Positions 1 through 8,187 of a stretch of DNA of 12,481 nt are shown here, piece by piece (the stretch's first letter is position 1; each line of letters opens with the position of its first letter). The stretch comes from a virus. Lineage: Duplodnaviria; Heunggongvirae; Uroviricota; Caudoviricetes. The position numbers were made by a program, and so were the translations under genes. The DNA is taken from IMG/VR virus record IMGVR_UViG_2526164665_000018, one strand, 5' to 3'. The notes beneath the pieces are model-generated. The model saw only the letters and a program-made list of their open reading frames with translations. It was not told the DNA's origin and searched no databases.

Positions 1-45
1 CCGGAAATCCTGGAGACTAAACTCCCTGAGAAAGAGGTAAACAGG

Positions 46-372
46 ATGACTAAAAATACTCGTTTTTCCCCCGAAGTCCGTCAGCGGGCGATTCGTATGG
101 TTCTGGAAAGTCAGGATGAATATGACTCACAGTGGGCGGCAATTTGTTCCATTGCCCCAAAGATTGGCTGTACGCCGGAGACTCTGCGTGTCTGGGTTCG
201 CCAGCATGAGCGGGATACCGGGGGCGGTGATGGTGGGCTCACCAGTGCTGAACGTCAGCGTCTGAAAGAGCTGGAACGTGAAAATCGTGAACTGCGCCGC
301 AGTAACGATATCCTTCGCCAGGCTTCCGCTTATTTTGCGAAGGCGGAGTTCGACCGCCTCTGGAAAAAATGA
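46..372 (+). CDS. IS3-family transposase OrfA (helix-turn-helix/leucine-zipper part)
   Basis: 108-aa [25 protein letters not shown]... recognised as IS629-type OrfA. It ends in an A6 slippery run (364..369) where the IS3-family -1 frameshift into OrfB occurs. Confidence 0.9.
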
Positions 373-1259
373 TGCCACTGCTGGATAAGCTGCGTGAGCA
401 GTACGGGGTCGGACCGGTATGCAGCGAACTGCATATTGCCCCGTCAACGTATTACCATTGTCAGCAACAGCGACATCATCCGGATAAACGCAGTGCCCGT
501 GCGCAGCACGATGACTGGCTGAAGAAAGAGATACAGCGCGTATACGATGAAAATCACCAGGTATACGGTGTGCGTAAAGTCTGGCGTCAGTTGTTACGGG
601 AAGGTATCAGAGTGGCCAGATGCACTGTGGCACGTCTCATGGCAGTTATGGGACTTGCCGGTGTTCTCCGGGGTAAAAAGGTCCGCACTACCGTCAGCCG
701 GAAAGCCGTTGCCGCATGCGACCGCGTAAACCGTCAGTTCGTGGCAGAACGTCCAGACCAGTTGTGGGTGGCTGATTTTACCTGGGTAAGCACATGGCAG
801 GGCTTCGTTTATGTGGCGTTCATCATTGATGTGTTCGCCGGATACATCGTGGGATGGCAGGTCTCATCATCCATGGAAACAACATTCGTGCTGGATGCAC
901 TGGAGCAGGCGTTGTGGGCCCGTCGGCCGTCCGGCACAATCCATCACAGTGATAAAGGTTCTCAGTATGTATCGCTGGCCTACACGCAGCGGCTTAAGGA
1001 AGCCGGATTACTGGCATCAACAGGGAGTACTGGCGACTCGTATGACAACGCGATGGCTGAGAGCATCAATGGTCTTTACAAAGCGGAGGTAATACACCGT
1101 AATAGCTGGAAAAACCGGACAGAAGTGGAACTGGCCACACTAACGTGGGTGGACTGGTATAACAATCGACGATTGCTGGAAAGGCTGGGCCATATTCCTC
1201 CGGCAGAAGCAGAAAAAGCTTATTATGCTTCCATCGGAAATAATGATCTGGCAGCCTGA
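369..1259 (+). CDS. IS3-family transposase OrfB (DDE catalytic domain), normally expressed as an OrfAB fusion by -1 frameshifting
   Basis: 296-aa ORF overlapping OrfA in the -1 frame, with the typical DDE-transposase layout (...WVADFTWV...HSDKGSQY...YDNAMAES...). Identical in protein sequence to the minus-strand copy at 4909..5799. Confidence 0.9.
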
Positions 1260-1302
1260 GTTCACAGATAAAATACTCTCCAGGAAACCCGGGGCGGTTC
1301 AG

Positions 1303-1569
1303 CGTGATGTTGATCGCGCAGAAACAGATTTACTTATCAACCTGTCAACGCTTACCCAGCGCGGTCTGGCAAAGATGATTGGCTGTCATGAATCGAAGAT
1401 AAGCAGAACGGACTGGAGATTTATTGCTTCGGTCTTGTGTGCTTTCGGAATGGCATCAGACAACAGTCCGATTAGCAGAGCTTTTAAGTATGCGCTTGAT
1501 GGACTCACCAATAAAAAACGCCCGGTGTGCAAGACCGAGCGTTCTGAACAAATCCAGATGGAATTCTGA
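1303..1569 (+). pseudogene. cII: cII transcriptional activator homologue, 5'-truncated by the IS insertion
   Basis: The frame open after the IS end encodes ...GLTNKKRPVCKTERSEQIQMEF, matching the recalled lambda CII C-terminus (..ILTNKKRPAATERSEQIQMEF) and helix-turn-helix region. The first ~8-10 codons are missing. Position immediately upstream of O matches lambda order. Confidence 0.75.
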
Positions 1570-1601
1570 GGGAATTACTGGATCAATCCACAGGAGTCAT
1601 T

Positions 1602-2473
1602 ATGACAAATACAGCAAAAATACTCAACTTCGGCAGAGGTAACTTTGCCGAACAGGAGCGTAATGTGGCAGATCTCGATGATGGTTACGCCAGACTATCA
1701 AATATGCTGCTTGAGGCCTATTCAGGCGCAGATCTGACCAAGCGACAGTTTAAAGTGCTGCTTGCCATTCTGCGTAAAACCTATGGGTGGAATAAACCAA
1801 TGGACAGAATCACCGATTCTCAACTTAGCGAGATTACAAAGTTACCTGTCAAACGGTGCAATGAAGCCAAGTTAGAACTCGTCAGAATGAATATTATCAA
1901 GCAGCAAGGCGGCATGTTTGGACCAAATAAAAACATCTCAGAATGGTGCATCCCTCAAAACGAGGGAGGTTCCCCTAAAATGAGGGACATCCCTCAAAAC
2001 AGAGGGACACAAAAGACACTATTACAAAAGAAAAAAGAAAAGATTATTCGTCCGAGAATTCTGGCGAATCCTCTGACCAGCCAGAAAACGATCTTTCTGT
2101 GGTTAAACCGGATGCTGCAATTCAGAGCGGCAGCAAGTGGGGAACAGCAGAAGACCTGACCGCCGCAGAGTGGATGTTTGACATGGTGAAGACCATCGCA
2201 CCATCAGCCAGAAAACCGAATTTTGCAGGGTGGGCTAACGATATCCGCCTGATGCGTGAACGTGACGGACGTAACCACCGCGATATGTGTGTGCTTTTCC
2301 GCTGGGCCTGCCAGGACAACTTCTGGTCCGGTAACGTGCTGAGTCCGGCCAAACTCCGCGACAAGTGGACCCAGCTCGAAATCAACCGTAACAAGCAACA
2401 GGCAGGCGTGACAGCCAGAAAACCAAAACTCGACCTGACAAACACTGACTGGATTTACGGGGTGGATTTATGA
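1602..2473 (+). pseudogene. O: Replication initiator O, frameshifted inside the ori iteron region
   Basis: N-terminal frame (1602..2159) matches recalled lambda O (MTNTAKILNFGRGNFA...). C-terminal frame (open from 1979, first Met at 2099, to 2473) matches the lambda O C-terminus (...SGSKWGTAEDLTAAEWMFDMVKT...GVDL). The two parts are in different frames; total length 872 nt is not a multiple of 3. Confidence 0.75.
1950..2050. repeat. ori-lambda-like origin: three iterons (each an inverted repeat, TCCCTC...GAGGGA) followed by an A/T-rich stretch
   Basis: atccctcaaaacgagggag / gttcccctaaaatgagggac / atccctcaaaacagagggac at 1950..2008, then aaaagacactattacaaaagaaaaaagaaaag. Lambda has four iterons at this position inside O (established knowledge). 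Confidence 0.8.
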
Positions 2474-3171
2474 AAAACATCGCCGCACAGATGGTTAATT
2501 TTGACCGTGAGCAGATGCGTCGGATCGCCAACAACATGCCGGAACAGTACGACGAAAAGCCTCAGGTACAGCAGGTAGCGCAGATCATCAACGGTGTGTT
2601 CAGCCAGTTACTGGCAACTTTCCCGGCGAGCCTGGCTAACCGTGACCAGAACGAACTGAACGAAATCCGCCGCCAGTGGGTTCTGGCTTTCCGGGAAAAC
2701 GGGATCACCACAATGGAACAGGTTAACGCAGGAATGCGCGTAGCCCGTCGGCAGAATCGACCATTTCTGCCATCACCCGGGCAGTTTGTTGCATGGTGCC
2801 GGGAAGAAGCATCCGTTATCGCCGGACTGCCAAACGTCAGCGAGCTGGTTGATATGGTTTACGAGTATTGCCGGAAGCGAGGCCTGTATCCGGATGCGGA
2901 GTCTTATCCGTGGAAATCAAACGCGCACTACTGGCTGGTTACCAACCTGTATCAGAACATGCGGGCCAATGCGCTTACTGATGCGGAATTACGCCGTAAG
3001 GCCGCAGATGAGCTTGTCCATATGACTGCGAGAATTAACCGTGGTGAGGCGCTCCCTGAACCAGTAAAACAACTTCCTGTCATGGGCGGTAGACCTCTAA
3101 ATCGTGCACAGGCTCTGGCGAAGATCGCAGAACTCAAAGCTAAGTTCGGACTGAAAGGAGCAAGTGTATGA
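2470..3171 (+). CDS. P: Replication protein P (DnaB helicase loader)
   Basis: 233-aa ORF MKNIAAQMVNFDREQMRRIANNMPEQYDEK..., near-identical to recalled lambda P. Start overlaps the O stop. Confidence 0.92.
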   Translation: MKNIAAQMVNFDREQMRRIANNMPEQYDEKPQVQQVAQIINGVFSQLLATFPASLANRDQNELNEIRRQWVLAFRENGITTMEQVNAGMRVARRQNRPFLPSPGQFVAWCREEASVIAGLPNVSELVDMVYEYCRKRGLYPDAESYPWKSNAHYWLVTNLYQNMRANALTDAELRRKAADELVHMTARINRGEALPEPVKQLPVMGGRPLNRAQALAKIAELKAKFGLKGASV

Positions 3172-3458
3172 CGGGCAAAGAGGCAATTATTCATTACCTG
3201 GGGACGCATAATAGCTTCTGTGCGCCGGACGTTGCCGCGCTAACAGGCGCAACAGTAACCAGCATAAATCAGGCCGCGGCTAAAATGGCACGGGCAGGTC
3301 TTCTGGTTATCGAAGGTAAGGTCTGGCGAACGGTGTATTACCGGTTTGCTACCAAGGAAGAACGGGAAGGAAAGATGAGCACGAACCTAATTTTTAAGGA
3401 GTGTCGCCAGAGTGCCGCGATGAAACGGGTATTGGCGGTATATGGAGTTAAAAGATGA
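3168..3458 (+). CDS. ren: Ren (Rex-exclusion relief protein)
   Basis: 96-aa ORF MTGKEAIIHYLGTHNSFCAPDVAALTGA..., matching recalled lambda Ren in sequence, length and position after P. Confidence 0.88.
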   Translation: MTGKEAIIHYLGTHNSFCAPDVAALTGATVTSINQAAAKMARAGLLVIEGKVWRTVYYRFATKEEREGKMSTNLIFKECRQSAAMKRVLAVYGVKR

Positions 3459-3538
3459 CCATCTACATCACTGAGCTAATAACAGGCCTGCTGGTAATCG
3501 CAGGCCTTTTTATTTGGGGGAGAGTAAATCGTGGCTGA
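3455..3538 (+). CDS. Candidate 27-aa single-pass membrane peptide (MTIYITELITGLLVIAGLFIWGRVNRG)
   Basis: ATG overlaps the ren stop (ATGA coupling) and the peptide has a hydrophobic core. Too short for the ORF track, so support is only sequence-level. Confidence 0.25.
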   Translation: MTIYITELITGLLVIAGLFIWGRVNRG

Positions 3539-3754
3539 GTTTATGCTCGTCGCACTCAAATGCGTTGGCGTTTGATGGATTCTTCTGACGTTATTTATTG
3601 TTCTGCATAGCTACATTCGTCTTGTGAATGACGGTAAAGACCCATGGTATACGTTGTTTGGCGCTGCATTTGTCTGGGTGATTATCGGTGTTGCGCCTGT
3701 CGCTGTAGCAAAAATGGCGTGGCGTTTTGTGAGTTGAACTGAGGGTAAGTATCG

Positions 3755-4111
3755 ATGGACGAATCAAGAAAGCAGTTTGAGGAATACGTTGCCAAAAAAT
3801 TGAGATTACCATTCGAGATGATAACCGAGGCAAGAAATGGTGATAGGTACTTCGCATTTTCAAGCATGGATATTCGTCACTCCTTAAATGAGTGGTGGAC
3901 TTTATGGCAGGCATCGCGAGCAGCTATTGAACTGGATATCGACTGGCCAGAATCGAATGACGACTTTTGGAAAGATGGTGAAGAAGGTGCTTATGCGATG
4001 GGTTATGAGGATGGGCGTGACAAAACGGTAATTGCAGTAATGAAAGCTATCAGAGCCGCTGGAATTAAAGAGAAGAATTTCGATGAAGCAAACAATATTC
4101 CTCCGAACTAA
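3755..4111 (+). CDS. Hypothetical acidic phage protein (118 aa), accessory gene between ren and ninB
   Basis: Clean ORF with a GAGGG Shine-Dalgarno-like motif ~11 nt upstream of the ATG, rich in Asp/Glu. No family recognised. Lambda has ren and ninB almost adjacent, so this lies in an insert. Confidence 0.6.
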   Translation: MDESRKQFEEYVAKKLRLPFEMITEARNGDRYFAFSSMDIRHSLNEWWTLWQASRAAIELDIDWPESNDDFWKDGEEGAYAMGYEDGRDKTVIAVMKAIRAAGIKEKNFDEANNIPPN

Positions 4112-4493
4112 GCAACAACAGCAAGCCGCAATCAACGCCATCCTCGCAACACCACTCGATAAAGACAAGCCAGTCACCATCCGCATTACTGACTACAAGC
4201 GCAACCTTGACCAGAACGCAAAATTTCACGCGATGCTGGCGGATATCGCACGTCAGGTTCAATGGTGCGATAAGTGGTTAAAACCAGAACAATGGAAGGT
4301 TTTGTTGATTAGCGGTCATGCAGTGGCAACAAAGCAGGAAGCTGATGTTTTGCCCGGCCTTGAAGGCGAATACGTCAACATTCGCGAAAGTAGCGCGCAG
4401 ATGAGTGTGAAGCGTATGGCAAGTCTGATTGAGTACACGACAGCATGGGCTATTGGTCAGGGCGTCAGATTTACCGACAGGAGGTACGAATGA
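4083..4493 (+). CDS. ninB: NinB (Orf-family recombination mediator)
   Basis: 136-aa ORF whose ...[33 protein letters not shown]... matches the recalled lambda NinB pattern (...IVVTIQERNRSLDQNRKLWACLGDVSRQVEW...). Confidence 0.85.
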
Positions 4494-4666
4494 GACGACA
4501 GCGACGAAGTATCACCGACATAATCTGTGAAAACTGCAAATACCTTCCAACGAAACGCTCCAGAAATAAACGCAAGCCAATCCCAAAAGAATCTGACGTA
4601 AAAACCTTCAACTACACGGCTCACCTGTGGGATATCCGGTGGCTAAGACATCGTGCGAGGAAATGA
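4490..4666 (+). CDS. ninE: NinE
   Basis: [58 protein letters not shown] (58 aa) from the ATG at 4490, preceded by AGGAGG, near-identical to recalled lambda NinE. The track ORF 4445..4666 is the same frame extended upstream. Confidence 0.85.
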
Positions 4667-4866
4667 CAATGCTTTTAATTCAACCTGGATTTGGACTTAG
4701 CATCAAAAAAGGCCACATGTTTGGCGAGAAAGAGTCACAACGAAAAATGGTGTCTATCCGGTTGCCATTTATCAGTATTTATTGGCTAAACAGGGAGGCA
4801 ACAAATTATTGGTATACATGCGCCAGAGCAGCATTTAACGACCCTGACTGGTTTGTGAAAAACCAC
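4663..4866 (+). pseudogene. 5' part of a nin-region ORF interrupted by IS629 copy 2
   Basis: ATG at 4663 overlaps the ninE stop. The frame runs into the IS, whose first three bases (tga) create the stop of track ORF 4627..4869. The frame resumes in phase after the IS (see 6213..6383). Confidence 0.4.
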
Positions 4867-4908
4867 TGAACCGCCCCGGGTTTCCTGGAGAGTATTTTAT
4901 CTGTGAAC

Positions 4909-5799
4909 TCAGGCTGCCAGATCATTATTTCCGATGGAAGCATAATAAGCTTTTTCTGCTTCTGCCGGAGGAATATGGCCCAGCCTTTCCAGCAATCGTC
5001 GATTGTTATACCAGTCCACCCACGTTAGTGTGGCCAGTTCCACTTCTGTCCGGTTTTTCCAGCTATTACGGTGTATTACCTCCGCTTTGTAAAGACCATT
5101 GATGCTCTCAGCCATCGCGTTGTCATACGAGTCGCCAGTACTCCCTGTTGATGCCAGTAATCCGGCTTCCTTAAGCCGCTGCGTGTAGGCCAGCGATACA
5201 TACTGAGAACCTTTATCACTGTGATGGATTGTGCCGGACGGCCGACGGGCCCACAACGCCTGCTCCAGTGCATCCAGCACGAATGTTGTTTCCATGGATG
5301 ATGAGACCTGCCATCCCACGATGTATCCGGCGAACACATCAATGATGAACGCCACATAAACGAAGCCCTGCCATGTGCTTACCCAGGTAAAATCAGCCAC
5401 CCACAACTGGTCTGGACGTTCTGCCACGAACTGACGGTTTACGCGGTCGCATGCGGCAACGGCTTTCCGGCTGACGGTAGTGCGGACCTTTTTACCCCGG
5501 AGAACACCGGCAAGTCCCATAACTGCCATGAGACGTGCCACAGTGCATCTGGCCACTCTGATACCTTCCCGTAACAACTGACGCCAGACTTTACGCACAC
5601 CGTATACCTGGTGATTTTCATCGTATACGCGCTGTATCTCTTTCTTCAGCCAGTCATCGTGCTGCGCACGGGCACTGCGTTTATCCGGATGATGTCGCTG
5701 TTGCTGACAATGGTAATACGTTGACGGGGCAATATGCAGTTCGCTGCATACCGGTCCGACCCCGTACTGCTCACGCAGCTTATCCAGCAGTGGCATCAT
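4909..5799 (-). CDS. IS3-family transposase OrfB (copy 2)
   Basis: 296-aa ORF identical to 369..1259. Confidence 0.9.
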
Positions 5800-6122
5800 T
5801 TTTTCCAGAGGCGGTCGAACTCCGCCTTCGCAAAATAAGCGGAAGCCTGGCGAAGGATATCGTTACTGCGGCGCAGTTCACGATTTTCACGTTCCAGCTC
5901 TTTCAGACGCTGACGTTCAGCACTGGTGAGCCCACCATCACCGCCCCCGGTATCCCGCTCATGCTGGCGAACCCAGACACGCAGAGTCTCCGGCGTACAG
6001 CCAATCTTTGGGGCAATGGAACAAATTGCCGCCCACTGTGAGTCATATTCATCCTGACTTTCCAGAACCATACGAATCGCCCGCTGACGGACTTCGGGGG
6101 AAAAACGAGTATTTTTAGTCAT
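5796..6122 (-). CDS. IS3-family transposase OrfA (copy 2)
   Basis: 108-aa ORF identical to 46..372. Confidence 0.9.
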
Positions 6123-6212
6123 CCTGTTTACCTCTTTCTCAGGGAGTTTAGTCTCCAGGATTTCCGGGGCGGTTCACACCACGCAGTTCGTCAGGCAAAG
6201 AGAAAGGCCAAT

Positions 6213-6383
6213 ATGACATACATGAAGGCGTATCAAAAAGCATGGAAAGAACACCGCGATCGATACCAACAAGACATGGAAAAGCTTGAATCAGAAAACA
6301 TGGAATTAAGACGAAAGCTCGGTGAAGCAAAACGAGACATTGATGCTTACAAGCGACTTTTTAATGGTGAAAGCCATGCTTAG
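6213..6383 (+). CDS. 56-aa predicted coiled-coil protein (MTYMKAYQKAWKEHRDRYQQDMEKLESENMELRRKLGEAKRDIDAYKRLFNGESHA); possibly the 3' remainder of the ORF split by IS629 copy 2
   Basis: AAAGG Shine-Dalgarno-like motif 5-6 nt upstream of the ATG at 6213. In frame with 4663..4866 once the IS and one TSD copy are removed. Overlaps the ninF start by 8 nt. Confidence 0.4.
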   Translation: MTYMKAYQKAWKEHRDRYQQDMEKLESENMELRRKLGEAKRDIDAYKRLFNGESHA

Positions 6384-6552
6384 CCCATCCCAATCCCTTC
6401 AATACCAGAAAGAAAGCGTCGAGCGAGCTTTAACGTGCGCTAACTGCGGTCAGAAGCTGCATGTGCTGGAAGTTCACGTGTGTGAGTACTGCTGCGCAGA
6501 ACTGATGAGCGATCCGAATAGCTCAATGTACGAGGAAGAAGACGATGAATGA
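6376..6552 (+). CDS. ninF: NinF
   Basis: MLSPSQSLQYQKESVERALTCANCGQKLHVLEVHVCEYCCAELMSDPNSSMYEEEDDE matches recalled lambda NinF. The track ORF 6322..6552 is the same frame from an upstream Met. Confidence 0.8.
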   Translation: MLSPSQSLQYQKESVERALTCANCGQKLHVLEVHVCEYCCAELMSDPNSSMYEEEDDE

Positions 6553-7267
6553 GTTAATAAATGGCAATGCCATCAAAATGACAAGCATTGAAATAGCTGA
6601 GTTGGTGGGTAAGCGTCATGACAATGTGAAACGTACCATCGAAACGCTGGCTAAAAATGGTGTTATCCGGCTTCCTCAAATTGAGGTTTCCGAAAGAATC
6701 AATAACTTAGGGTTCAATGTTCAGTACGAGCATTACGTCTTCGAGGGCGAACAAGGTAAGCGAGACAGTATTGTCGTTGTTGCCCAGTTGTCGCCAGAGT
6801 TCACCGCTCGTCTTGTTGACCGTTGGCGAGAGCTTGAAGAAACTGCGGTTAATATCCCCAAAACGTTACCGGAAGCGTTGCGCCTTGCTGCTGATCTTGC
6901 TGAGCAGAAAATGCAACTGGAAAACCAGCTCGCAATTGCCGCACCTAAAGTTGAGTTTGCCGATCGCGTTGGCGAGGCCAGCGGAATTTTGATTGGAAAC
7001 TTTGCAAAGGTTGTTGGTATTGGTCCAAACAAACTGTTTGCGTGGATGCGCGATCACAAAATCCTTATTGCTTCAGGTTCCCGGCGCAATGTGCCAATGC
7101 AGGAATATATGGATCGCGGCTATTTCACAGTGAAAGAAACAGCGGTCAACACAAATCACGGAATACAGATATCGTTCACCACAAAAATCACCGGGCGTGG
7201 TCAACAGTGGCTGACCAGAAAGCTGCTCGATAACGGAATGCTGAAAGTAACAGGGGAGGCTGCTTAA
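6545..7267 (+). CDS. roi: Roi-like DNA-binding protein (antirepressor family; Rha/Bro-N-like N-terminus, KilA-C/ANT-like C-terminus)
   Basis: 240-aa ORF; the N-terminus ...MTSIEIAELVGKRHDNVKRTIETL... resembles phage regulatory Rha/Bro-N domains. Length and nin-region position fit the Roi protein of HK022-type phages. Domain call is from memory. Confidence 0.65.
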   Translation: MNELINGNAIKMTSIEIAELVGKRHDNVKRTIETLAKNGVIRLPQIEVSERINNLGFNVQYEHYVFEGEQGKRDSIVVVAQLSPEFTARLVDRWRELEETAVNIPKTLPEALRLAADLAEQKMQLENQLAIAAPKVEFADRVGEASGILIGNFAKVVGIGPNKLFAWMRDHKILIASGSRRNVPMQEYMDRGYFTVKETAVNTNHGIQISFTTKITGRGQQWLTRKLLDNGMLKVTGEAA

Positions 7268-7557
7268 TGGCTAACCTACGCAAAGAATCTCGCGGCAGAG
7301 AATGCCAGGTACGTATTTACGGCATATGCAATGGCAATCCTGAAACTACAGTTCTGGCACATTACCGGATGGCTGGAATTTGCGGAACGGGAATGAAGCC
7401 TGACGACCTGATCGGCGCATGGGCTTGTAGCGCGTGTCACGATGAAATCGACCGACGCACCCATAACCTCGACAACAAAGACGCCAGACTTTACCACCTC
7501 GAAGGCGTGATCAGGACGCAGGCGATACTGCTGAAGGAGGGGAAGATTAAGTCATGA
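7267..7557 (+). CDS. ybcO: YbcO-like DUF1364 protein (putative nuclease)
   Basis: 96-aa ORF MANLRKESRGRECQVRIYGICNGNPETTVLAHYR...CSACHDEIDRRTH... resembles recalled DLP12 YbcO. Lies immediately upstream of rusA, as in DLP12. Confidence 0.75.
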   Translation: MANLRKESRGRECQVRIYGICNGNPETTVLAHYRMAGICGTGMKPDDLIGAWACSACHDEIDRRTHNLDNKDARLYHLEGVIRTQAILLKEGKIKS

Positions 7558-7916
7558 ACGAATATCAGTTTGTGCTTCCATACCCGCCGTCGGTGAATAC
7601 CTACTGGCGAAGACGGGGAAGCCAATACTACATCAGCGATAAAGGCCAGAAATACCGAAAAGACGTTCAGCAAATCATCCACCAACTCAAGTTAGATATT
7701 TTCACCAAATCACGACTCCGCATCAAAGTAATCGCAGACGTTCCAGACTCCCGCCGCCGCGACCTAGATAACATCCTGAAGGGTTTACTCGACTCCCTTA
7801 TCCATGCCGGATTTGCGGAAGACGACGAGCAATTCGATGACATTCGCGTAATTCGTGGTGTGAAAGTACCAGGCGGACGGCTTGGAATAAAAATCACCGA
7901 ACTGGAGAACGCATGA
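7554..7916 (+). CDS. rusA: RusA Holliday-junction resolvase
   Basis: 120-aa ORF with ...PDSRRRDLDNILKGLLDSLIHAGF...GGRLGIKITELENA, matching the conserved RusA core (..PDRRRRDLDNLQKA..GGRLELTITEMGNE). Confidence 0.88.
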   Translation: MNEYQFVLPYPPSVNTYWRRRGSQYYISDKGQKYRKDVQQIIHQLKLDIFTKSRLRIKVIADVPDSRRRDLDNILKGLLDSLIHAGFAEDDEQFDDIRVIRGVKVPGGRLGIKITELENA

Positions 7917-8101
7917 ACGCCACAATTCAAACGATACCAGAGCTTCTTATCCAGACACGAGGCAATCAGACCGAAGTGGCGAGGATGCTTTCCTGCGCAA
8001 GAGGAACAGTGCTCAAGTACAACCGAGACAGCAAAGGCGAGCGTCATGTAATAGTTAACGGCGTCCTGATGGTCAAACAGGGCAAGAGGGGAAGACGATG
8101 A
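7913..8101 (+). CDS. ninH: NinH
   Basis: 62-aa ORF ...TIPELLIQTRGNQTEVARMLSCARGTVLKYNRDSKGERHVIVNGVLMV... matches recalled lambda NinH (..TIPDMLVEAYGNQTEVARRLKCSRGTVRKY..). Confidence 0.8.
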   Translation: MNATIQTIPELLIQTRGNQTEVARMLSCARGTVLKYNRDSKGERHVIVNGVLMVKQGKRGRR

Positions 8102-8187
8102 GACTCGAAAGCGTAGCTAAATTTCATTCGCCAAAAAGCCCGATGATGAGCGACTCACTACTGGCCACAGTTTATTGGTTTTCGTAA
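8098..8187 (+). pseudogene. Q: Remnant of a lambda-type Q antiterminator gene (first 20 codons only)
   Basis: MRLESVAKFHSPKSPMMSDS (8098..8157) equals the recalled lambda Q N-terminus; the frame then diverges and stops at 8187. The ATG overlaps the ninH stop. Confidence 0.65.

Follow-up and report, generated by a model that had tools for sequence, protein, structure and literature searches.

IS629 is an insertion sequence of the IS3 group within the IS3 family, with IS1203 and IS3411 as isoforms. IS3-family elements move by a copy-out-paste-in route through a circular intermediate, and the donor copy is regenerated (review, 10.1101/2023.06.07.543989). IS629 yields target-site duplications of 3-4 bp, which are present at only 21 of 47 O157 sites, and 62% of its copies reside in prophages (PMC3271280). 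IEE occurs in O26:H11, and IEE-dependent events include deletions next to the IS whose length ranges from a few nt to over 40 kb (PMC9943667). Excisions associated with IS629 and IEE, as well as deletions beside the IS, in enterohaemorrhagic Escherichia coli go back to Ooka (2009) and Kusumoto (2011), as these studies are cited in PMC9943667.

The window, i.e., the whole 12,481-nucleotide stretch that was analysed, very probably comes from a lambda-like prophage in decay, integrated beside ybhC in E. coli O26:H11, and spans its early and nin region. Two IS629 copies lie in this decayed prophage. In the reading we favor (probability about 0.88 for the whole), copy 2 is an insertion, copy 1 marks a deletion junction, and the segment between them has been flipped by recombination in some strains.

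The IS629 copies and the prophage segment between them

A repeat search found a single inverted repeat in the window. Its arms (1-1302 and 4866-6167) are 1302 nt long and 100% complementary, although the 1302nd matched base of each arm is a chance match of the flanks and lies outside IS629. The full element is 1,310 bp, as defined by copy 2, which is complete on the minus strand (4867..6176; IRR 4867-4907, IRL 6136-6176). Copy 1 on the plus strand (1..1301; IRR 1261-1301) is 100% identical to copy 2 and corresponds to element nt 10-1310; its first 9 nt are absent since the window begins within IS629. The missing TGAACCGCC is found immediately to the left of the window's equivalent in the nearest complete genome, where copies 1 and 2 match at 1310/1310 positions. 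A reading made from the sequence alone had called the copies identical, OrfA and OrfB included, and this holds at 100% nucleotide identity over the aligned arms. It had also taken the identity as a sign of recent transposition, which is a weak argument. All IS629 copies examined in the prophage are identical, and because this includes a third copy outside the window, identity says nothing special of copies 1 and 2.

Each copy has the anatomy of an IS3-family element. In copy 1, orfA (46..372, plus strand; 108 aa) encodes an HTH_Tnp_1 domain (Pfam PF01527, E 2.4e-12). The downstream orfB (369..1259, plus strand; 296 aa) encodes an HTH_21 domain and an rve integrase core (rve E 2.4e-26; NCBIfam IS3 family transposase, 312 bits). 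The ORF list places orfB at 4909-5799 and orfA at 5796-6122, both on the minus strand, in copy 2. The two genes overlap by ATGA, downstream of an A6 run, and an ALIL pseudoknot (Rfam RF01497) at 327..443 on the plus strand in copy 1 and 5725-5841 on the minus strand in copy 2 reaches 121.5 bits in each copy (gathering score 50). RefSeq models the orfA/orfB CDS with a programmed frameshift at the location of this pseudoknot. The overlapping orfA (HTH) and orfB (DDE/rve), with a predicted programmed -1 frameshift, are as expected for the IS3 family. The termini, TGAACCGCCCCGG... and ...CCGGGGCGGTTCA, form 41-nt arms that are 76% complementary, and both the imperfect TG...CA terminal repeats and the length of 1,310 bp (family range ~1.2-1.55 kb) are typical of the family. 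Target duplications fall in its 3-4 bp range at copy 2 (CAC) and at the third copy (ACC). Over 1310/1310 nt the element is 99.8% identical to the one annotated as IS629 orfA/orfB by the depositors of phage BP-4795 (AJ556162), which served as a proxy for the original Shigella sonnei reference, with >~95% nucleotide identity as the threshold for assignment. On these features both elements in the window can be assigned to IS629, a known IS3-family insertion sequence.

The copies bracket a segment of 3,565 bp (1302..4866), whose genes all lie on the plus strand and were placed from the annotation of a near-identical locus in strain 08_4358 (L001). They are cII' (1303-1569), O (1602-2473), P (2470-3171), ren (3168-3458), a hypothetical gene (3866-4111), ninB (4083-4493), ninE (4490-4666) and the 5' part of a 133-aa hypothetical gene split by copy 2 (4669-4866). 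The 3' part of the latter continues at 6177..6383 on the plus strand, as seen by comparing translations with the intact gene in the related O26 genome L003 (9437-9838). The bracket proposed from the sequence alone, from cII' through ninE, is real, but its right limit is the 5' part of the 133-aa gene, past ninE. The "replication module" named in that proposal is present as genes and already defective. A 67-bp iteron deletion removed three iterons from O and shifted its reading frame. At the left end, a hybrid ORF (1225..1569, plus strand) opens with 25 codons of the IS629 right end and continues in frame into cII codons 11-99, the original start of cII having been deleted; RefSeq names a shorter form of it (1243-1569) a "CII family transcriptional regulator". 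With O frameshifted and the early regulators deleted together with their promoter region, we expect the replication module to be neither functional nor expressed. Having lost its repressor, N, cro and an intact O, the prophage can probably not be induced. The window carries seven SNPs that are matched by no genome in the collection, with a best match of 99.5% over 1302-2700.

Copy 2 is a simple insertion and copy 1 lies at a deletion in relatives

Copy 2 interrupts the small 133-aa gene downstream of ninE and is flanked by CAC on the left (4864..4866) and on the right (6177..6179). The empty site in L003 reads AAAAAC-CAC-CAC-GCAG, one CAC fewer than the occupied site. Copy 2 is an ordinary transposition event with a CAC duplication, and its earlier description as a simple insertion is borne out by comparison with this IS-free allele. 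In 11368-type genomes copy 2 is found alone, without copy 1, in the direct context. Strain 02E060 has no IS at the copy 2 site, yet carries three CACs. This looks like an exact loss of the IS, although trinucleotide slippage could in principle give the same sequence.

Copy 1 has a different history. Its flanks mismatch in every close relative (TCG or GAG on the left, GCG on the right), and no target-site duplication was found between them in these genomes. In the relatives copy 1 sits on a deletion of 3.1-4.3 kb that removed sieB, N, cI, cro and the start of cII, and the lack of a duplication is explained by this adjacent deletion. On the left, copy 1 abuts the remnant of sieB or, where the deletion reaches further, that of a TolA-like gene; on the right it meets cII codon 11. 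Numbered along the intact L003 allele, the flanks on either side of the IS form the series 2927/6003, 1697/6003, 2144/7362 and 2927/7966, the left-junction types being taken from individual relatives' loci. The end points vary among strains, and each deletion begins exactly at a copy 1 end. In strain 11368 the IS itself and 6 nt of flank are gone (2927 joined to 6009), and the joint shows a microhomology of 2 nt (TG).

The left flank of the window's copy 1 lies outside the window, as had been pointed out from the sequence alone. What that account missed is that copy 1, as seen in relatives, marks an IS-adjacent deletion of the immunity region and is no plain insertion. We infer the same deletion junction for the window from relatives that are 99.9% identical. 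The DNA to the left of the window would then be TGAACCGCC, preceded by either ...GGGGGATGGAG (truncated sieB) or ...CTTCAGCCTCG (truncated TolA-like gene).

Copy 1 appears to have generated adjacent deletions repeatedly. These may have formed by a second insertion nearby followed by recombination, or by the IEE/transposase-dependent pathway described for IS629. The 2-nt microhomology in 11368 is compatible with an IEE-promoted event, but is not diagnostic of one. An apparent IS629-cII' junction in O103:H2 FWSEC0007 was considered as the ancestral insertion and rejected; it is a separate IS629 insertion inside O.

Both orientations of the segment occur in O26 genomes

Both IRR ends face inward and both outer ends are IRL. 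With 3.6 kb between them, the copies form perfect inverted repeats of 1.3 kb, an arrangement in which homologous recombination would flip the segment. Orientation was called with queries made of the whole IS plus 1 kb on either side, on other groups' assemblies. Of the complete genomes that carry both copies and the entire 3,565-bp segment, 11 have the window orientation and 3 have the exact inverted isomer. The latter is found at 100% query coverage in PV0838, 10159 and 7_12_30A. PV0838 (L007) equals 08_4358 with 9302-12866 reversed, apart from a single mismatch over 21,310 nt, and the inverted segments of all three have 0 mismatches to the 08_4358 segment. Their flanks are exactly as expected from an exchange within the IS copies. 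The possibility of inversion raised from the sequence alone is thereby realized in three complete O26 genomes, and the two isomers are fixed in different sequenced strains.

A wider census used a probe of 300 nt of the IS right end plus the reverse complement of 4567-4866 and found copy 2 in 24 genomes: 18 direct, 3 inverted and 3 with a second type of inversion. The latter spans 10.8 kb between copy 2 and the third IS629, which has its own ACC duplication, as in RM10386. The sieB' and the TolA' left junctions each occur with both the direct and the inverted orientation, and these four combinations take at least two inversion events to explain. The segment has what defines an invertible one, namely both orientations in the same background with break points in the repeats. 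No invertase gene is annotated in or beside it, and the flip would be RecA-dependent. It is probably without functional consequence.

These orientations were judged from assemblies rather than reads, and repeats are well known for causing mis-joins. In the three genomes the inverted orientation could be an assembly error over the 1.3-kb repeats, with no true polymorphism behind it, but we consider this improbable. The three assemblies come from Japan (AP027188) and the USA (two CP0749xx/CP0748xx records), have three different left-flank backgrounds and share an identical structure. A distinct inversion, the 10.8-kb one, is present between other IS629 copies in three further genomes, and a 1.3-kb repeat is short against the long reads usual for complete genomes.

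A different order of events is less likely again. The inverted isomer could have come first, by replicative intramolecular transposition of copy 1 into CAC, a single step that would make an inverted second copy and flip the segment at once, with the direct isomer arising later by recombination. The flanks of the inverted isomer (GTG... after one IS, CAC after the other) also fit such a transposition, and structures alone cannot order the isomers. Inversion-insertions, however, are not expected of an IS3-family element that regenerates its donor through a circular intermediate. The direct isomer is also the commoner of the two, copy 2 stands alone in the direct context in 11368-type genomes, and the same kind of flip has involved copy 2 and the third copy, which was inserted independently and has its own ACC duplication. 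These points speak against an inverted isomer that came first.

Since inversion is recurrent, the segment may conceivably flip appreciably within single cultures, its orientation altering read-through of the IS-CII' fusion, O-P or ninB-ninE. We regard this as a long shot. If true, the IS pair would serve a domesticated prophage as a rough phase switch, with flanking prophage DNA or the IS ends as the source of read-through.

The least credible alternative, that IS629-segment-IS629 is a composite transposon inserted or mobile as one piece (two complete, apparently intact IS copies do bracket the segment), founders on a segment that is collinear with the genes of the IS-free allele at the same chromosomal site and differs little from them in sequence, on outer flanks that share no duplication (GAG or TCG on the left, CAC on the right, with copy 2 alone having its own CAC/CAC), and on inner junctions restricted to this O26 prophage, with no second location in 5,426 genomes or 72,556 plasmids. 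Composite-transposon-like mobilisation, as suggested by the sequence-only reading, is unsupported: one duplication around the unit and foreign cargo are both lacking. The unit was instead put together in situ in two separate events, and we found no evidence of its movement as a unit.

Comparison with known systems

No new mechanism is revealed here. [quoted passage not shown] It displays a simple insertion, an apparent exact excision, an excision with small flank loss, graded IS-adjacent deletions and two inversions. Such polymorphisms could mislead short-read assembly, prophage typing and IS629-based typing of O26 strains.

Tn10 and Tn5 have the same geometry, with two inverted IS copies around a segment. 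The O26 locus differs from them in that it has no unit-wide duplication, its cargo is native and it occupies a single location. Inversions through homologous recombination of inverted IS or prophage repeats, such as the large chromosomal rearrangements of O157:H7 (PMC8743559), share with it perfect inverted repeats, both orientations in nature and break points in the repeats. In contrast to those, the flip in O26 is small (3.6 kb, one prophage) and without obvious phenotypic consequence. The likeness to the IS629/IEE system, as far as that system is described in the source cited above, lies in the variable deletions from an exact IS end, the losses in 11368 and 02E060, and a serotype that carries IEE. 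Unlike IS629/IEE excisions, most alleles keep the IS beside the deletion, and recombination between direct copies would explain them equally well. The closest match is IS629 of enterohaemorrhagic E. coli and Shigella itself, which shares the 1,310-bp length, TG...CA ends, ALIL pseudoknot, rve core, 3-bp duplication and residence in prophages. Relative to the copies in O157 Stx2a phages, those in the window are an O26-type sequence variant (~98.5% identical), with no substantial difference. The type of rearrangement is ordinary and already understood, and it agrees with how IS629 is known from the literature to behave in enterohaemorrhagic E. coli.

The IS629 pair in its prophage

The window is a 99.9% match to a lambda-like prophage adjoining ybhC in E. 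coli O26:H11 genomes and corresponds to 8001-20483 of the prophage locus from strain 08_4358 (L001). According to the annotation of that locus, the gene order is IS629, cII' (truncated cII), O (frameshifted), P, ren, a hypothetical gene, ninB, ninE, the 5' part of a hypothetical gene, IS629 (reverse), the 3' part of the same gene, ninF, a KilAC antirepressor, DUF1364, rusA, ninH, a Q remnant, an lpxR-family gene, and Q. The LpxR-family lipid A deacylase gene (8309-9271, minus strand) runs opposite to the surrounding antiterminator genes and is flanked by a 72-bp antiterminator gene remnant (8098-8169) and a complete Q gene (9662-10435). It looks like cargo in a mosaic late-regulatory region.

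A repeat search found a single long inverted repeat in the window, with 1302-nt, 100% complementary arms at 1-1302 and 4866-6167. A perfect repeat of 1.3 kb is much longer than chance could produce. Copy 2, on the minus strand at 4867-6176 (IRR 4867-4907), is a 1,310 bp element with the termini TGAACCGCCCCGG... and ...CCGGGGCGGTTCA. Copy 1, on the plus strand from the window start to 1301 (IRR 1261-1301), comprises nt 10-1310 of the same element, whose first 9 nt fall outside the window. The nearest complete genome has the TGAACCGCC that the window's copy 1 lacks, and there both copies agree at 1,310/1,310 positions. The sequence-only reading of two identical, inverted copies around a segment is thus borne out; both IRR ends point at the 3,565 bp between them (1302-4866).

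Both copies carry orfA (108 aa), with a transposase HTH domain, and orfB (296 aa), with HTH_21 and rve integrase-core domains and a score of 312 bits against the NCBIfam IS3 family transposase model. An ALIL frameshift pseudoknot lies at 327-443 in copy 1 and 5725-5841 in copy 2 (Rfam, 121.5 bits vs. a gathering score of 50), and the RefSeq annotation of the transposase CDS models a programmed frameshift. By sequence identity the element is IS629: across its whole length it shares 99.8% identity with the annotated IS629 of Stx phage BP-4795, and IS629 copies in O157 Stx2a phages are ~98.5% identical to it.

Copies 1 and 2, and a third IS629 found outside the window in some related prophages (copy 3), are identical in all strains examined, except for one SNP in one 7_12_30A copy. 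This identity indicates an O26 IS629 population that is young or has been homogenised. Recent transposition had been read from the identity of copies 1 and 2; since all three copies are identical, it is no evidence that either begot the other.

Copy 2 as an insertion, copy 1 as a deletion junction

The copy 2 site is explained by an allele of the same prophage in strain 2013C-3252 (L003), which is IS629-free and has an intact 133-aa gene at this position. Its empty site reads AAAAAC-CAC-CAC-GCAG, and the occupied site in the window AAAAAC-CAC|IS|CAC-CAC-GCAG, i.e., one CAC more. Copy 2 is bordered by CAC on the left (4864-4866) and right (6177-6179), and the extra CAC is the target duplication of a simple insertion, as had been proposed. 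The prophage of strain 02E060 lacks copy 2, yet has three CACs, and its homologue of the interrupted gene is 3 bp longer. This is most simply a footprint of exact IS loss, with trinucleotide slippage as an alternative. At copy 2, NIID080884, War and OY754853 have the IS-ninF junction on the IRL side and lack the one on the ninE side, implying more rearrangements or deletions there.

The flanks of copy 1 are unmatched in all relatives (left ...GGAG or ...CTCG, right GCG...). In coordinates of the intact L003 allele, the left flank ends at 2927 (in sieB) and the right flank starts at 6003 (cII codon 11) in most genomes, including 02E060 and UTAK-23. The left end is 1697 (in a TolA-like gene) in 08_4358 and PV0838, with the same right start. 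CFSAN027346 joins 2144 to 7362 (in P), and 93_0495 joins 2927 to 7966 (in ren), each with the IS present. The reference strain 11368 has lost the IS and 6 nt of the right flank, joining 2927 to 6009 with TG microhomology at the joint. All of these deletions begin exactly at an IS end, and copy 1 is best read as lying at a deletion junction.

Such a series fits the known IS629-associated polymorphism in EHEC. In O157, duplications border only 21/47 IS629 sites, and prophages hold 62% of the copies (PMC3271280). Events dependent on IEE and transposase include IS-adjacent deletions of a few nt to >40 kb, and IEE is found in O26:H11 (PMC9943667; review 10.1101/2023.06.07.543989). The copy 1 deletions may have arisen via IEE, or may reflect a transient second IS copy that recombined with copy 1. 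A second IS, IS600, also diversifies the O26 prophage: in the erf-kil region left of the window its sites and orientations vary among O26 strains (L002 2931-4087; L004 2453-3609; L008 2097-3253; L012 3745-6180), and UTAK-23 has two copies in tandem.

State of the bracketed genes

The 3.1-4.3 kb deletion took out the genes for the repressor, N and cro; if the layout is as in lambda, the early promoters lying between these genes would be lost too. The window's seven SNPs are matched at the corresponding locus by no complete genome of the collection, so the left flank of copy 1 is taken from relatives; whichever left junction applies, N, cro, the cI-like repressor and cII codons 1-10 would be absent. 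An ORF at 1225-1569 starts in the IS629 right end, crosses the IRR and enters cII at codon 11. The resulting 114-aa fusion consists of 25 codons from the IS end and the cII remainder. RefSeq labels a shorter form of it a CII family regulator. In O (1602-2473), a 67-bp deletion at 1988-2007 relative to the intact allele, common to all IS-bearing O26 relatives, is bounded by iteron-like repeats (ATCCCTCAAAACGAGGGA type). Of the six repeats three are gone and three are left, and the shifted frame yields ORFs 1602-2159 and 2099-2473. With O frameshifted, repressor, N and cro deleted and cII truncated, a flip of the segment would most likely be neutral.

Five of the seven SNPs fall within 94 bp at the O/P junction (2406-2499), the others at 1463 and 2003. 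The same O26 genomes carry another lambdoid prophage, whose O-P junction is the nearer match to this patch (2 mismatches vs. 5). This points to gene conversion between the paralogous prophages, or to a consensus mixed from them in assembly. Single-base length differences from all relatives in homopolymer runs at 8315, 9287, 10500 and 10808 look like sequencing or polishing errors of the source assembly; the last leaves a hypothetical gene of 744 bp as two ORFs, 10604-10879 and 10876-11361. Two more gaps, at 12463 and 12477, lie outside homopolymer runs at the extreme window end.

Inversion of the segment

Because both IRR ends face inward, the isomers can be separated only by a probe across the whole IS. 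A junction probe for the IS right end, blind to isomer, found copy 2 in 24 genomes. Probing for the native orientation (3867-7176) gave full matches in 18 O26 genomes. The inversion probe (reverse complement of 1302-2301 joined to 4867-7176) matched PV0838, 10159 and 7_12_30A at 100% coverage and 99.9% identity, with only 70% in other genomes. All three are annotated with IS(+), reversed ninE...P, O, cII', then IS(-) and ninF. Their segments have no mismatches to the direct segment and show an exact exchange of flanks (IS|GTGGTTTTT and ...ATCACGC|IS). PV0838 and 08_4358 with its segment reversed differ by one mismatch in 21,310 nt. The inversion predicted for the inverted pair is thus verified by an exact isomer in public genomes, with 11 direct and 3 inverted among genomes having both copies and the whole segment.

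The unique junction with the truncated TolA-like gene occurs in both orientations (direct in 08_4358, inverted in PV0838), as does the junction with truncated sieB (direct in many, inverted in 10159 and 7_12_30A). The segment must therefore have inverted at least twice, or inverted once and reverted. The L001 annotation shows no invertase gene near the segment, and the exchange presumably occurred by general homologous recombination.

The other three of the 24 copy 2 genomes, RM10386, 03_3469 and 07_3722, keep the IRR-side junction and have two copy 2 junctions ~11 kb apart. In RM10386 (L011 10725-24025), the one fetched of the three, the ~10.7 kb between copy 2 and copy 3 is inverted; like junction spacing suggests the same inversion in the other two. 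In some strains copy 3 (noted at L006 20549-21173, in 02E060) sits upstream of the small terminase gene, with ylcI on its other side, and it has its own ACC duplication.

Composite-transposon-like mobilisation, also raised earlier, is not supported: we rejected IS629-segment-IS629 as an active composite transposon because the outer flanks share no duplication, copy 2 has one of its own and the cargo is collinear with the IS-free allele, and the inner junctions were found solely in the O26 prophage among 5,426 genomes, with the IS-cII' junction in 0/72,556 plasmids.

IS629 itself, its deletions and the mechanism of inversion are already well known from EHEC.
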